From contig JAVCCU010000008.1 in the NCBI GenBank assembly GCA_030765335.1, positions 3 through 64,002 on the forward strand: a DNA stretch of 64,000 nt, written 5' to 3'. The notes below the pieces were generated by a model. That model ran no database searches. It had not been told where the DNA came from and worked only from the letters and a program-made list of their open reading frames with translations. The DNA is from Candidatus Kaelpia aquatica. GTDB taxonomy: Bacteria > Omnitrophota > Gorgyraeia > Kaelpiales > Kaelpiaceae. Below are positions 29,900 to 36,637 of the stretch, piece by piece; the first letter of the stretch is position 1, and each line of letters opens with the position of its first letter. A program made the translations under genes and the position numbers.

Positions 29900-31489
29900 T
29901 TAAGAGTCGTTGTTTACTAGAAGACTGACATCTATAAATCTTGATTTATCACTATCGAAATAGAACATATATCTTCTCCAAAAAGAAGGAAATCTTGAAT
30001 CTATACCAAGTATAATCTCATCATCAGGATAGAAAAAAGCTACGCCTTTAAAAGCTATCTCTTTCAATTCTTTTTTAGAAAATTCTACATTTTTTGGTTG
30101 TTTAATATAGGCAACGAACTCCTCTATTCTCTCGAGTGGAATGATTTTTTCAGAATCAAATTCGATATTGATAAATATTGGCAATTGACACCAACTATCA
30201 TATCTTGAAGTTTTTTTAATATATAAGAATAAATATGCACACGAACCTGGAAAAGCAGCAAATTGGTTTATATTATAGGGATGATTAACAACATACACTA
30301 CTGTTCGGGGATTACTAATTACTATAGTTTCTAGAGAATCAACCATGCTTTTCACGGTTTTTGAAACCTCTATAAAATCTCTCCCTCGTTTTATTCTGGA
30401 TTTAAAAGAGAGAATGAGAAACATTGCGGCCAACAGGCAGAAAAGTGCTTTTTTAAACTTCAAAACTTTACCTATATCAGTAAAAAACAAACTCCAGAGA
30501 AATCCCACCCCTATCAAAGGAATGTACAAGTATTTTTCACGTATTATTGGATCCGGATAATACAGTGCAGGCAAAAGAGTGATTCCAATCCAGAGTAAAG
30601 AAAATCGATAATGCTTATCTTTGATAATATAAACAAGGAAGAAATACCCTAATACAATTAACCACATCAAAAATACATCGTGATGTCGCATCATTAAAAA
30701 CTCTACTCCTTTCCCCTGAAACTGAAAGGGAATAAAAAGCAACTTTAGTCCAATACTTAAAAGAGGTAATCTTAAAAAATTTTCAGCTATTAATACACTC
30801 AGCCTTTCGTTTTCTAAGGCAAGAGAATTGCTGCATAAAACAAGTCTAATTATTAAGAATGTAGACATAATTAAAAAGAACGGCAAAGATAGAATAAGCT
30901 TCTTTCTTAAGATCCTTTGATCGTAAAAAAGGAGAAGAATAAGAATTAAAAGCGGCAAAACAACGGATGTCTCACGAGCAAAGAAAGCAATAATTGTCAA
31001 GAATACTGCCCAAATAAGACAAGCTTTATTTTTCTTCTCGATATAATTTAAAATTAAAATTAAACAGCAAAGCATGAAAAACACGGCCATTATTTCATCT
31101 ATTCGTCTAATAGTAAAGACAACGTTGGTATTCATATAATGAAGTCCGAAGATAGCTGCACAGAGGAATGAAATTAATCTATTTTTTGTAAGCTTATAAA
31201 TAAATATCATGACAAGAATACATACAATCAAATGCAAGAAGTGATTAATTAAATGGTAATAAAAATATGGTAATTCTAATTTTTTAAATGCTGTTAAAAA
31301 ATAAAATTGCAGCAACGGTCGATAGAATAATACTTCTTCTAGGTTCAGTGTTTCTACATGAACCTTATTCAGCCATTGAAAATCTTCACCAGTAAAAAAA
31401 GTTTTGTTCGGTGAAGTAAAGAAAATGGCGATATTTAAAATCAATAATAAACCTAGAAACAACCAGAATTTAGAGTTTGAAGGATTCAT
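29900..31489 (-). CDS. Large polytopic membrane protein of GT-C-like (PMT/ArnT-type glycosyltransferase-like) architecture. It is paralog 1, the last gene of the island operon.
   Basis: 529 aa ORF with 11 or more predicted TM helices over the N-terminal ~400 aa and a soluble ~130 aa C-terminal domain. The first extracytoplasmic loop carries an acidic GEDFQWL motif, and a later loop carries FQFQGKG. It is clearly paralogous to the ORF at 33528..34934 (shared blocks YRPLLQFYFL/FTQLFFHIL, AIFGLHYMNTNV/FIFSIHYINTAV and FQFQG/FDFQG). Composition is very A+T-rich. Confidence 0.55.
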   Translation of the reverse strand: MNPSNSKFWLFLGLLLILNIAIFFTSPNKTFFTGEDFQWLNKVHVETLNLEEVLFYRPLLQFYFLTAFKKLELPYFYYHLINHFLHLIVCILVMIFIYKLTKNRLISFLCAAIFGLHYMNTNVVFTIRRIDEIMAVFFMLCCLILILNYIEKKNKACLIWAVFLTIIAFFARETSVVLPLLILILLLFYDQRILRKKLILSLPFFLIMSTFLIIRLVLCSNSLALENERLSVLIAENFLRLPLLSIGLKLLFIPFQFQGKGVEFLMMRHHDVFLMWLIVLGYFFLVYIIKDKHYRFSLLWIGITLLPALYYPDPIIREKYLYIPLIGVGFLWSLFFTDIGKVLKFKKALFCLLAAMFLILSFKSRIKRGRDFIEVSKTVKSMVDSLETIVISNPRTVVYVVNHPYNINQFAAFPGSCAYLFLYIKKTSRYDSWCQLPIFINIEFDSEKIIPLERIEEFVAYIKQPKNVEFSKKELKEIAFKGVAFFYPDDEIILGIDSRFPSFWRRYMFYFDSDKSRFIDVSLLVNNDS

Positions 31490-32462
31490 ATCCAGATTGC
31501 AACCTTAAGTTCCAAGCCAAGTTAGCTTCAATGCGATTACTACACCCACAACTGCACTGAAAATCCAAATTTATATCGTTAATCTTTTTCTTAATCTTTT
31601 CTGTTTCTAATTTGGTTAGATCGATGGTGTGTTCTTGCAACTCCTGCTGTATGCAAGGGTACATTTTACCATTGGGGTCAATACGAAAGAAGATTTTCCC
31701 AAAAGCACAATCCATAGGTTTTAAATCAGGCCAATCTAGAAGGTATTTAAGTCCACTGAAAGAGTTGCTGATATTATTGCGATATTTAAAATCCATTTTA
31801 TAACGGATGATTCTCTTCACTGCTTCAACAAACACATCTTTCTGCGCTAATAAAGGATTGTGTTCCTTGGTTTTTAGAAAATAGAAGTTAATTGGTTGAA
31901 ACGCTACTGAGGTATGAAATTGATTTGCCAATAATATTAAATCTTCAATATAATCAGAATTGAGTTTATTTAGAGTGGCAGAGAATCTAACCTTTAAATT
32001 ATTGGATTGAGCAGCTTTTACCGCCAAGATTATACTTTGAAAAGAATCTTTTTGTCGGATTAAATCATGTATCTCCTCGGAACCTTCAATACTTAAAATA
32101 AGCATGTCCAACTGTTTTAGTTTTTGAATATTTTGAGACACTAGAGAGCCATTGGAGTTTAGACATACAAAAATACCCTTCTCTTTGGCATAATTAATAA
32201 GTTGGTAAATATTGTCTTTTACTAAAGGCTCTCCTCCAGTAAAATTTATCCTTTGCAGCCCTAACTGTCTTAGCTTATCTATTATTTCTAAAGCCTTCGA
32301 AGTTGAGACTTCGTCTGTTTTAAGATTCCAATCCTTACAATATTTACATTTATAGTTGCAACGGTATGTAACCGCCCAGCTTAAGGCTATTGGGGTTCTG
32401 ATTTTAAACAACTTTGCTTTTGCAAAACAACTTGCTATTGAAAGTTGAGATTTTAATTTCAT
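31470..32462 (-). CDS. Radical SAM enzyme with a C-terminal SPASM-type auxiliary Fe-S domain (paralog A).
   Basis: 330 aa ORF with a CxxxCxxC radical-SAM cluster motif RCNYKCKYC near the N-terminus. FTGGEPLV and LNSNGSL are typical MoaA/PqqE/anSME-class core blocks. The C-terminus has a SPASM pattern C-AFGKIFFRIDPNGKMYPC ... CSCGC. It overlaps the downstream membrane gene by 20 nt. Confidence 0.75.
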   Translation of the reverse strand: MKLKSQLSIASCFAKAKLFKIRTPIALSWAVTYRCNYKCKYCKDWNLKTDEVSTSKALEIIDKLRQLGLQRINFTGGEPLVKDNIYQLINYAKEKGIFVCLNSNGSLVSQNIQKLKQLDMLILSIEGSEEIHDLIRQKDSFQSIILAVKAAQSNNLKVRFSATLNKLNSDYIEDLILLANQFHTSVAFQPINFYFLKTKEHNPLLAQKDVFVEAVKRIIRYKMDFKYRNNISNSFSGLKYLLDWPDLKPMDCAFGKIFFRIDPNGKMYPCIQQELQEHTIDLTKLETEKIKKKINDINLDFQCSCGCSNRIEANLAWNLRLQSGYESFKL

Positions 32463-33451
32463 TATTTAATAACTTTCTGAATCGTCTTTAAAATAAGCCA
32501 TTTATGTCTTAGCAAAAACGATAGCTCTAATGATCCACAAAATCCACACCCATTACATACGACAGGCGGTAGAAGCTTAAAAGCTTCTTTAAAAGAAGTA
32601 TTCGCTATGTTAGGAAGATTCTCATTATAGCTAATCCTATCGCAAGGTAAAACAGTGCCATCGGAATCGATAATGCAAAATAAATGTCCTGCTGCACATT
32701 TTAATTGCTCATAATTTGGCCAACGATAAATATGATCGAGCATAGCTATGGAATTTCTGATATGCTTAGAGCTGCATCCATATTTTAATGAAATCAGTCT
32801 TTTAATTTTATCATGATAAACATTTTTTTCAGGATAAATATTTTTTAAATCCAGGGCATGTTTTACATTAAGTTTCAGGGGTTGAAAAGCAACAAAGGTA
32901 TTTAAGCTTCTGGCAAGATCAACTAAGTACTCTAAATGCTCGATATTATATTTTGTAATTGTGCATGCAAAACTGATTTTAATTCCGTTTTTTTGAGCAA
33001 TTCGAACAGATTTCATTAATTGATCAAACAAACCCTTTTTCTGACGCACAGAATCGTGAATCTCTTTAGGGCCATCTAAGCTCAGTTTTAATAAATCCAG
33101 GTTTTTTATCTCAGAGACTCTTTCTGGAACCAAATATCCGTTTGAATTCATGCTTACCGAAATACCTAAGTCTTTAGCTTGATCAATTATCAGCTTAATA
33201 TCATCTCTAAGTAAAGGTTCTCCTCCGCTCAGCGAAATCCTTTTCGTCCCCGCATCCTTTAATTCTTTGAGCAAAGCCAATACTACTTCGGTTTTAAGAT
33301 CTGGCTTGGGATTTTTCCAAAGATTACAGTATCTACATCTTAAATTACATCTATCAGTTAGTTGTAGTCGTACCGCAAGCGCTATTTTGCCACCTGAAAC
33401 AGAAGCTCTTAATGATCGAGTAAGGGAATTAATTTTAGTTAAAAATTTCAC
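32462..33451 (-). CDS. Radical SAM enzyme with a C-terminal SPASM-type auxiliary Fe-S domain (paralog B).
   Basis: 329 aa ORF with the radical-SAM cluster motif RCNLRCRYC, plus SLSGGEPLL and MNSNGYL. The C-terminus has a SPASM pattern CAAGHLFCIIDSDGTVLPC ... CNGCGFCGS. Its stop overlaps the start of paralog A by 1 nt (TAATG). Confidence 0.75.
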   Translation of the reverse strand: MKFLTKINSLTRSLRASVSGGKIALAVRLQLTDRCNLRCRYCNLWKNPKPDLKTEVVLALLKELKDAGTKRISLSGGEPLLRDDIKLIIDQAKDLGISVSMNSNGYLVPERVSEIKNLDLLKLSLDGPKEIHDSVRQKKGLFDQLMKSVRIAQKNGIKISFACTITKYNIEHLEYLVDLARSLNTFVAFQPLKLNVKHALDLKNIYPEKNVYHDKIKRLISLKYGCSSKHIRNSIAMLDHIYRWPNYEQLKCAAGHLFCIIDSDGTVLPCDRISYNENLPNIANTSFKEAFKLLPPVVCNGCGFCGSLELSFLLRHKWLILKTIQKVIK

Positions 33452-36383: not shown

Positions 36384-36385
36384 TT

Positions 36386-36637
36386 TTAAAATGCTTTCAG
36401 ACTATCTATCTTATTATTAAGTATCCCAATTGTAGCTTCTAATGCTGCGGATGATTGCTGTACTTTTATTTTATGTATAATTTTTGTATTTTCATATAAA
36501 CCAGTTGCTATAATTAGCGCTACCCAAAGAAAAAGTAAAAATAATTGCCATTTTTTTATCGAATTATTATTAGTCTTAAATTGCATCTTCACCATCATCT
36601 TACGAGATGTTCTATTTGTCAAGCAAGAGCATGGCAA
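36386..36637 (-). CDS. Small single-pass membrane protein, the first gene of the island operon. It uses a TTG start in the ORF track; an internal ATG (MMVKMQFK...) is plausible.
   Basis: 83 aa ORF with one strongly hydrophobic helix (WQLFLLFLWVALIIATGLY) followed by a ~40 aa polar/helical tail. It ends 2 nt upstream of the B12-rSAM gene. Confidence 0.3.
   Translation of the reverse strand: MPCSCLTNRTSRKMMVKMQFKTNNNSIKKWQLFLLFLWVALIIATGLYENTKIIHKIKVQQSSAALEATIGILNNKIDSLKAF

Follow-up and report, generated by a model that had tools for sequence, protein, structure and literature searches.

What three radical S-adenosylmethionine (radical SAM) enzymes, two polytopic membrane proteins and one small single-helix protein might accomplish together is the question raised by an operon at positions 29900-36637 of a 64,000-nt stretch of the genome of Candidatus Kaelpia aquatica (contig JAVCCU010000008.1; the whole stretch is referred to as the window, and all coordinates are window positions). 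An earlier note on this DNA described the operon as a candidate membrane-embedded tailoring system, acting on a membrane lipid or lipid-linked glycan or on a ribosomally synthesized and post-translationally modified peptide (RiPP). The reading preferred here, held tentatively and with slightly less than even confidence, is that the six genes form the tailoring and transfer part of a three-component system for extracytoplasmic envelope glycosylation, similar to Gtr and Arn, in which radical SAM enzymes would provide the tailoring step. Judged by its genes and their relatives, the module is real, conserved and rare, and probably fits best as a variant of three-component envelope glycosylation equipped with radical SAM enzymes and incomplete in cis in the window. 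Its genes are as follows, in gene order; the short names give the lengths in amino acids of the two membrane proteins (GTC468 and GTC529) and of the two shorter radical SAM enzymes (rSAM329 and rSAM330).

36386-36637 as an open reading frame (ORF) from TTG (83 aa), or 36386..36598 from ATG (70 aa), minus strand: small single-transmembrane (TM) protein, from the ORF list and public gene calls.
34944..36383, minus strand: class-B (B12-binding) radical SAM enzyme (B12-rSAM) of 479 aa, with PF02310 and PF04055.
33528..34934, minus strand: GTC468, predicted GT-C-fold polytopic membrane glycosyltransferase of 468 aa, from a rare subfamily of the PMT_2-like superfamily, with putative catalytic Asp35.
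32462..33451, minus strand: rSAM329, radical SAM enzyme of 329 aa with a twitch-like C-terminal domain, from PF04055 and its Cys pattern.
31470..32462, minus strand: rSAM330, radical SAM enzyme of 330 aa and paralogue of rSAM329, with PF04055 and the same twitch-like Cys pattern.
29900..31489, minus strand: GTC529, predicted GT-C-fold membrane glycosyltransferase of 529 aa, paralogue of GTC468 and last gene of the operon, with D36 as putative catalytic Asp.

The ORF listing fills 29900-36637 with these six, all co-directional on the minus strand. Their lengths and junctions (in gene order gaps of 2, 9 and 76 nt, followed by overlaps of 1 nt, at TAATG, and 20 nt) agree, by coordinates and sequence, with what had been claimed before. 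The overlap of the rSAM330 start with the upstream stop codon (TAATG) and the 20-nt overlap with GTC529 suggest translational coupling. The five long ORFs (329-529 codons) would not arise by chance in DNA of 31-34% guanine plus cytosine (GC), and each has homologues elsewhere.

The 479-aa enzyme carries the two Pfam domains that the earlier note had expected, a B12-binding domain (PF02310, 44.2 bits against a cutoff of 32.1, residues 30-137), the feature of class-B membership, and a radical SAM core (PF04055, 72 bits, above cutoff). The CX3CX2C motif of the core (C208/C212/C215 in the translation) is invariant in the alignment of its family. Its best NCBIfam match is HpnJ, which aligns over nearly its full length (enzyme residues 35-462, profile positions 38-463 of 472) and reaches 160 of the 577.6 bits required, with BchE close behind at 154 bits; because the HpnJ score lies so far under the cutoff, no equivalog applies to this protein. 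The nearest solved structures are those of AprD4 (E 3.9e-21), TsrM and TokK, related at superfamily level only; of these, AprD4 is a B12-domain radical SAM enzyme that is not known to use cobalamin. Radical tailoring of a lipid-linked sugar, by C-methylation or ring rearrangement, is proposed as the function of the window enzyme. A Kyte-Doolittle scan predicts no TM segment in this protein or in either of the two shorter radical SAM enzymes.

A genome scan with the B12-rSAM returned 51 loci, mostly in metagenome-assembled genomes (MAGs) of Omnitrophota and otherwise in Elusimicrobiota, Desulfobacterota and a few others (related loci used for comparison carry the numbers L001-L065). In 13 of the 51 loci, mostly from Omnitrophota, the enzyme bears a C-terminal family 2 glycosyltransferase (GT2). 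These fusion enzymes are ~50-55% identical to that of the window, which nests inside the clade holding all GT2 fusions in a neighbour-joining tree without support values. The best solved relatives of the fused GT2 are dolichol-P-mannose synthase (DPMS; E 1.3e-22), ArnC and GtrB, and its best NCBIfam matches are PpgS, AglJ and ArnC, with HpnB at 36 bits and HpnI not among the matches. On these comparisons the relatives are all polyprenyl-phosphate glycosyltransferases, the makers of GT-C donors. A standalone GT2 of DPMS/ArnC/PpgS type occurs in 10 further loci, and 13 loci encode LPG_synthase_TM proteins. In L004/L009, which is most closely related to the window operon (75% and 56% identity), such a gene lies between B12-rSAM and GT-C, and its product passes the TIGR00374 'flippase-like' cutoff. 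In L023 a single tight co-directional operon combines a B12-rSAM-GT2 fusion, an rSAM329 orthologue (48%), an LPG_synthase_TM-methyltransferase fusion, a TPR protein and two PMT_2-like GT-Cs, and the triad of B12-rSAM, twitch-type radical SAM and flippase-like gene is conserved in L023, L024, L032 and L034. The methyltransferase fusion of L023 (3853-5292) joins LPG_synthase_TM to a class-I SAM methyltransferase (Methyltransf_11, Pfam), has a homologue of similar length (503 aa) at L024:2783-4294, and is a second link of a methylation enzyme to the membrane translocation step.

The wider surroundings of the 51 loci are of lipopolysaccharide (LPS)/O-antigen type, with GT4 in 14, the O-antigen-ligase-like Wzy_C in 10, DegT in nine and GT9 in eight, PMT_2 also being recurrent; 43 loci have at least one glycan-type neighbour. 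Together with the GT2 fusions and the flippase-like genes, these neighbours favour the first of the two substrates suggested by the earlier note, a lipid-linked glycan or sugar. A scan from the GT-C side found radical SAM genes beside the GT-C in every locus with enough flanking sequence (L004, L007, L041, L060, L062 and L063).

The two shorter radical SAM enzymes are diverged paralogues of one another (34% identity, E 3e-58), as had been claimed. Both had also been labelled SPASM proteins, of which the radical SAM part stood (PF04055 at 101 bits in rSAM329, with a CX3CX2C core at C35/C39/C42, and at 76 bits in rSAM330). The SPASM domain (PF13186) is marginal in rSAM329, at 21.7 bits against a cutoff of 21.5 and covering only positions 1-42 of the 67-position profile, and has no Pfam match in rSAM330. 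Across the 26 aligned members of the rSAM329/330 family the CX3CX2C core and, beyond it, just four C-terminal Cys are conserved (C252, C270, C299 and C302, in at least 96% of members, spaced C-x17-C ... C-x2-C), not the seven of the SPASM motif with its two auxiliary [4Fe-4S] clusters. As four suffice for one auxiliary cluster, the domain is therefore a twitch-like, truncated SPASM; the SPASM label was overstated, and from their Cys pattern both proteins look like four-Cys 'twitch'-like enzymes rather than full SPASM proteins, with room for one auxiliary Fe-S cluster. The best NCBIfam match of rSAM329 is the PTO1314 family (118 bits against 306), and its nearest solved structures are SkfB, BlsE (E 2.3e-12), viperins and anSME, again at superfamily level only. 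Orthologues of rSAM329 (43-48% identity) adjoin the B12-rSAM in L023, L024 and L026, and that of L022 (48%) lies ~2 kb downstream. No protein of the operon reaches an NCBIfam equivalog cutoff. The cofactor maturases PqqE, MftC, NirJ and AhbD were considered and rejected, at 72-105 bits against cutoffs of 265-515 (3-5 fold short) and with none of their usual partner genes in the operon; membership of HpnJ was rejected at the score given above and that of HpnH at 73 and 60 bits against 225. One locus, L013 (Omnitrophica WOR_2 GWF2_43_52), holds four B12-binding radical SAM genes and five rSAM329/330-like paralogues in ~15 kb (5409-19871), beside a GT4 gene, so that these two radical SAM families are strikingly expanded there.

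Both membrane proteins are, on structure models, of the GT-C fold, with ~12 helices against the 7-8 TM segments of a simple Kyte-Doolittle scan, which is an undercount. The fold proposed by the earlier note stood. The PMT_2 scores of the two proteins (25.0 and 19.7 bits) both lie just under the Pfam gathering cutoff of 26.1. An Asp (D35 in GTC468, D36 in GTC529) is invariant in six sequences, lies right after TM1 in the first extracytoplasmic loop and aligns with the 'DD' of a TPR-PMT_2 protein; this is the catalytic-acid position of GT-C enzymes, and the residue is a putative catalytic Asp by alignment. The paralogues share 27% identity (E 9e-34). In L061/L062 an rSAM330 orthologue (61%) accompanies a GTC529 orthologue (49% identical to GTC529 but 29% to GTC468), and in L062 it precedes the latter with the same 20-nt overlap as in the window. 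Because these loci keep both orthologues and the overlap, the GT-C/radical SAM duplication is older than that lineage split, and the ancient origin claimed for both paralogue pairs is upheld.

The GT-C subfamily is rare, with five matches in 5.8 billion proteins in a word-indexed search. An exhaustive profile search recovered ~15 full-length representatives (50% clustering) before merging into the PMT_2-like superfamily, of which the profile reaches 53,717 proteins at E<=1e-3. A 38-nt direct repeat (30704-30741 and 34179-34216, 82% identity) is the DNA trace of LFIPF(D/Q)FQG, a motif common to both GT-Cs and the most conserved stretch of the subfamily. Members of ~690 aa (L007:1284-3359, L041 and L064) have a weak-to-faint C-terminal Pfam match to AMPK1_CBM, a CBM48-like domain of glycogen/starch-binding type, which would point to a glycan acceptor; carbohydrate-binding modules are found on glycan-modifying GT-Cs (PMC11127046). 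The GT-Cs of L023 carry TPR repeats instead of a CBM48-like domain, and acceptor-binding modules appear to vary among these proteins. In a second assembly of the same organism (ERZ27315495; L002:3286-4692) the GTC468 gene is split into ORFs of 126 and 335 aa, which may reflect either a frameshift in that strain or a mistake in the assembly; the gene is intact in the window, L001 and L003.

The small protein, for which 83 aa had been claimed, has orthologues of 70-71 aa, and public gene calls start it at an internal ATG (36386-36598); it is probably a protein of 70 aa beginning at the ATG at 36598, not one of 83 aa beginning at the TTG at 36637. Its N-terminus is basic and is followed by a single TM helix, then by a 'GLYEN' motif that is conserved and a C-terminal tail that varies; it has no Pfam, NCBIfam or PADLOC match. 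Orthologues with the same TM helix and GLYEN motif occur in L004/L009, L007/L041 and L060, and L041 holds the gene twice, in both cases immediately upstream of a GT-C gene that it overlaps. A profile of the protein matches only ORFs beside members of this GT-C subfamily, among them a homologue upstream of the GT-C in L064 (E 4.9e-7) and a weak match downstream of it in L063 (E 0.0018); a small single-TM ORF upstream of the GT-C in L065 does not match the profile. The small protein tracks the GT-C subfamily rather than the radical SAM enzymes, and a role as accessory subunit of the GT-C proteins is proposed for it.

Several known systems bear on what such a set of genes might do. The three-component systems compared were GtrA/GtrB/Gtr*, ArnC/ArnEF/ArnT, the PPPRS/MATE/GT136 pentofuranose system and the mycobacterial DPPR-DprE1/E2-Aft/Emb system (PMC11127046). 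They resemble the present loci in their GT-C-fold transferases with an acidic residue in loop 1 and their LPS/O-antigen-type context, and the operons of relatives likewise encode a GT2 of DPMS/ArnC/GtrB type together with a flippase-like membrane protein. It is established for these systems that auxiliary enzymes modify the lipid-linked donor and can diversify it (ArnD, DprE1/E2 and the ORF13 epimerase; PMC11127046). Here the auxiliaries are instead three radical SAM proteins, one with a B12-binding domain and two of twitch type, for which the literature searched offers no such case. The candidate flippase of the relatives is of LPG_synthase_TM type rather than GtrA, SMR or MATE, a conserved small single-TM partner stands beside the GT-C, and the window operon is without GT2 and LPG_synthase_TM flippase. 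None of the papers on three-component systems that were retrieved mentions radical SAM, and neither the combination of radical SAM enzymes with GT-Cs nor a radical SAM-containing three-component system is described in the literature searched, in agreement with the earlier note, which had not recognized the combination.

The Hpn module (HpnI, a GT2; HpnJ, a B12-type radical SAM enzyme; HpnK; HpnL, an LPG_synthase_TM protein; and HpnH) is similar in that GT2, B12-rSAM and LPG_synthase_TM recur together, that HpnJ is the top NCBIfam match and that radical chemistry on a lipid-anchored hexose is also proposed here. It differs in the scores, far under the HpnJ and HpnH cutoffs, in its hopanoid context, which these loci lack, and in its GT2, that of the relatives resembling polyprenyl-phosphate synthases; it is also without the GT-C transferases and O-antigen-type neighbours that are present in these loci. 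For calditol synthase (Cds) of Sulfolobus acidocaldarius, compared by description, a radical SAM rearrangement of a hexose that a membrane lipid already carries is likewise proposed, though this enzyme is archaeal, acts on glycerol dialkyl glycerol tetraether (GDGT) lipids and has no GT-C or flippase partners (PMC13459092). With the PMT/TMTC/ArnT-like GT-Cs (PMT_2; GT39/GT83) the window proteins share the loop-1 Asp, a weak PMT_2 signal and ~53,700 superfamily relatives at E<=1e-3; they differ in falling below the PMT_2 gathering score, in forming a small separate subfamily with a short C-terminal domain and in having a dedicated small TM partner and a consistent association with radical SAM enzymes. 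BtrN is an example of twitch/SPASM radical SAM enzymes acting on sugars or cyclitols, and GenK of class-B sugar C-methyltransferases. The twitch pair has the former's CX3CX2C core with four-Cys C-x17-C ... C-x2-C pattern and the 479-aa protein the latter's B12-binding domain and radical SAM core, though these are likenesses of domain and motif, the nearest solved structures (SkfB/BlsE/viperin and AprD4/TsrM/TokK) being similar at superfamily level only.

On these grounds the preferred reading of envelope glycosylation would run as follows. By analogy with the Gtr, Arn and pentofuranose systems, a GT2 would load a sugar onto polyprenyl phosphate (PMC11127046). The B12-rSAM and the two twitch-type enzymes may then act by radical chemistry on the lipid-linked sugar, candidate reactions being C-methylation, oxidation or epimerization, and a ring contraction like that of HpnJ or calditol synthase. 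Radical SAM ring contraction of lipid-linked hexoses has been proposed for HpnJ and Cds, in a review that makes no mention of polyprenyl carriers (PMC13459092). The product would be flipped across the membrane, in relatives possibly by the flippase-like LPG_synthase_TM protein, which is not present in the window, and the two GT-C paralogues, each probably with the small GLYEN protein, would transfer the modified sugar or sugars to periplasmic acceptors. The acceptor would most likely be LPS or another envelope glycan, LPS being plausible because the host encodes LptF/LptG. The pairing of both GT-Cs and radical SAM enzymes suggests two products or two acceptor sites. A broader version, offered with still less assurance, is that the loci represent a previously unrecognized 'radical' class of three-component systems that would be widespread in Omnitrophota, Elusimicrobiota and Desulfobacterota. 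Here a B12-rSAM, often fused to the polyprenyl-phosphate sugar synthase, and twitch-type radical SAM enzymes would rebuild a sugar on its polyprenyl-phosphate carrier by C-methylation, epimerization or carbocycle-forming ring contraction, and dedicated GT-Cs with a small single-TM subunit would attach the unusual sugar or cyclitol so formed to LPS or some other polymer of the envelope.

Several results weigh against this reading. A tblastn search (E<=1) found no polyprenyl-phosphate GT2 in the operon or the 64-kb window, and likewise no LPG_synthase_TM homologue in the window, GtrA, SMR and MATE flippases not having been searched for. In cis the system therefore lacks two of its three defining components, leaving the GT-C component, which is present as two paralogues. 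None of the radical SAM enzymes reaches the cutoff of a functional family in NCBIfam, and no result separates action on a lipid-linked sugar from action on a nucleotide sugar or a finished glycan. The two GT-C structure models were built from six-sequence alignments, and the second has a low mean predicted local distance difference test score (pLDDT 58.7). Within the 51 loci, genes of three-component type make up 10.1% of those at most three genes from the B12-rSAM vs 6.1% of those at least five genes away (Fisher p=0.16); no statistical enrichment is claimed because of this value, and the argument from context draws mainly on the fusions and a few complete operons rather than on a measured enrichment.

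The alternatives differ from the preferred reading chiefly in what the radical SAM enzymes act upon. They could serve the same envelope route but tailor a soluble nucleotide sugar before the GT2 loads the lipid carrier, as in aminoglycoside and deoxysugar pathways, the GT-Cs transferring the finished sugar. This is thought unlikely, although two of the nearest solved relatives of these enzymes, AprD4 for the B12-rSAM and the cytosylglucuronate decarboxylase BlsE for rSAM329, act on soluble sugars, the B12-rSAM-GT2 fusion fits 'modify, then load' and 'load, then modify' equally, and neighbouring genes include a DegT aminotransferase and, by eye, an NAD epimerase/dehydratase. Set against these are the position of the radical SAM domain in the fusion, N-terminal to a synthase of membrane-associated type, the triads of L023, L024, L032 and L034, which put the radical SAM genes between those for loading and flipping, and the precedent of known auxiliary enzymes that act on the lipid-linked donor (DprE1/E2; PMC11127046); none of these points is decisive. 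A second possibility, rated somewhat lower still, is that the target is a membrane lipid, whose head group the operon would rebuild much as HpnI/J/K/L (hopanoid cyclitol ether) or calditol synthase do, the GT-C-like proteins adding or moving a sugar on that lipid. The near end-to-end match to HpnJ speaks for it, as do the proposed ring contraction of lipid-linked hexoses by HpnJ and Cds (PMC13459092) and the recurrence of GT2, B12-rSAM and LPG_synthase_TM, which mirrors HpnI, HpnJ and HpnL. However, BchE matches almost as well as HpnJ, both HpnJ and HpnH (73 bits against 225) fall far short of their cutoffs, and the fused GT2 is closest to DPMS, ArnC, PpgS and AglJ. The neighbours are of O-antigen/LPS type and not isoprenoid-cyclase genes, and known GT-Cs work outside the cytoplasm, with lipid-linked donors.

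Modification of a peptide or protein, the second option of the earlier note, is improbable. On this account the small membrane protein, or some other protein, would be modified by the radical SAM enzymes and O-glycosylated by the PMT_2-like GT-Cs. In the small protein the N-terminal part is indeed conserved, and the C-terminal tail is variable and contains Ser/Thr; the superfamily-level matches of rSAM329 and rSAM330 include the peptide maturases SkfB and PapB (all far below cutoff), the PMT family O-mannosylates proteins and the L023 GT-Cs carry TPR repeats. Yet Pfam finds no PqqD/RRE domain in any of the radical SAM enzymes at E<=0.1, the operon contains no protease or ABC exporter, and the intergenic gaps hold no further conserved small ORF. 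What is conserved in the small protein is the TM helix with the GLYEN motif, and its variable tail is probably periplasmic by the positive-inside rule, beyond the cytoplasmic radical SAM enzymes; in L041 it is duplicated along with GT-C, not radical SAM, genes, and the wider context consists of polysaccharide genes. That the operon serves anti-phage defence through radical SAM enzymes akin to viperin is hardly credible. PADLOC pVip models match both ~330-aa enzymes at 85-95 bits, PDC-M51A matches the B12-rSAM and the region is compositionally atypical, but the pVip matches are confined to the generic radical SAM core (residues 25-183), and a defence role is rejected on that account. In addition, the NCBIfam model for prokaryotic viperins gives 66-72 bits where 180 would be required, and the partners are GT-C, GT2 and flippase-like genes. 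The C-terminal domain of both enzymes is a four-Cys auxiliary-cluster domain, which viperins are not known to have.

The composition of the region had led the earlier note to suggest horizontal acquisition. The operon is indeed richer in A+T than its flanks, its five large genes (GC 0.306-0.340) all lying below each of the 49 other genes of the window (0.347-0.444). Much of this difference is at codon positions 1 and 2 and therefore reflects amino-acid composition; GC at third positions is moderately lower (0.295 vs 0.343, p=0.005), and the codon-usage distance is ~2 standard deviations above contiguous control blocks, inside their range. These mildly atypical values are not accompanied by an integrase or att-like flanking direct repeats at the operon, which lies 5' of the tRNA cluster and not at a tRNA 3' end. 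No relative shares its flanks, HydG, HydF, PtsN, YvcK, GH57 and the tRNAs of the window flanks being absent from all related loci bar one unrelated PtsN match, and around the operon the window consists of core-chromosome genes (RpoD, DnaG, MetK, AhcY, glycolysis and Lpt genes). Horizontal acquisition is thus weakly supported; the pattern fits a variable surface-glycan locus, possibly exchanged in the past, and is not proof of recent transfer.

The borders given earlier were confirmed with ARAGORN, Rfam and gene calls. Downstream, tRNA-Gly(GCC), tRNA-Leu(TAG) and tRNA-Lys(CTT) lie at 29257-29582 on the same minus strand as the operon, ARAGORN and Rfam agreeing, and upstream are genes for a HydG-type protein (Radical_SAM+BATS) and HydF (HydF_dimer/tetramer), from public gene calls on the identical contig L001. 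Rfam at E<=0.1 matched the three tRNAs alone, with no cobalamin or SAM riboswitch, and scans for promoters (41 sites against 34.6±6.3 in shuffles) and terminators (4 against 4.0) gave no excess. A promoter-like site with an extended -10 element (TTGACC-17-TACAAT, preceded by TG) lies at 29605-29633 on the minus strand, directly upstream of tRNA-Lys, and the three tRNA genes are probably served by a promoter separate from that of the operon. At 39604-41442 (minus strand) are a TM1266-like small protein directly upstream of hydF and a Macro+NUDIX fusion (40510-41442), from precomputed Pfam matches on L001; no hydE was seen among the genes called beside hydF and hydG there. The genes for S-adenosylhomocysteine hydrolase and SAM synthetase adjoin at 20319-22748 (minus strand), ~7 kb from this operon of three SAM-consuming radical enzymes. 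The closeness of AhcY and MetK to an operon rich in radical SAM genes, with HydG as a further one upstream, is probably coincidental core metabolism. Two plus-strand ORFs of the window, at 19-1089 (356 aa) and 10655-11377 (240 aa), match no Pfam family at E<=1e-5. An LptF/LptG permease pair is encoded at 17160-19336 on the plus strand (Pfam 300 and 257 bits), and the host is therefore a diderm exporting LPS; the Saccharibacteria label of the MAG contig of L009, the closest related locus, is a poor fit with LptF/LptG in the window.

If the proposal is true, radical SAM chemistry would join the diversification of envelope glycans at the lipid-carrier stage, which has so far been the work of deformylases, epimerases and phosphatases. 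The B12-rSAM-GT2 fusions suggest polyprenyl-phosphate sugars as the substrate. Though the chemistry is only proposed, the fusion of a B12-rSAM to a polyprenyl-phosphate glycosyltransferase and the strict pairing of radical SAM enzymes with GT-Cs would probably surprise specialists. L023-type operons are compact, and the small GLYEN protein may represent a novel type of accessory subunit for GT-Cs. For Omnitrophota and neighbouring phyla, whose envelopes are essentially uncharacterized, the system would, if true, provide the first functional handle on cell-surface chemistry.

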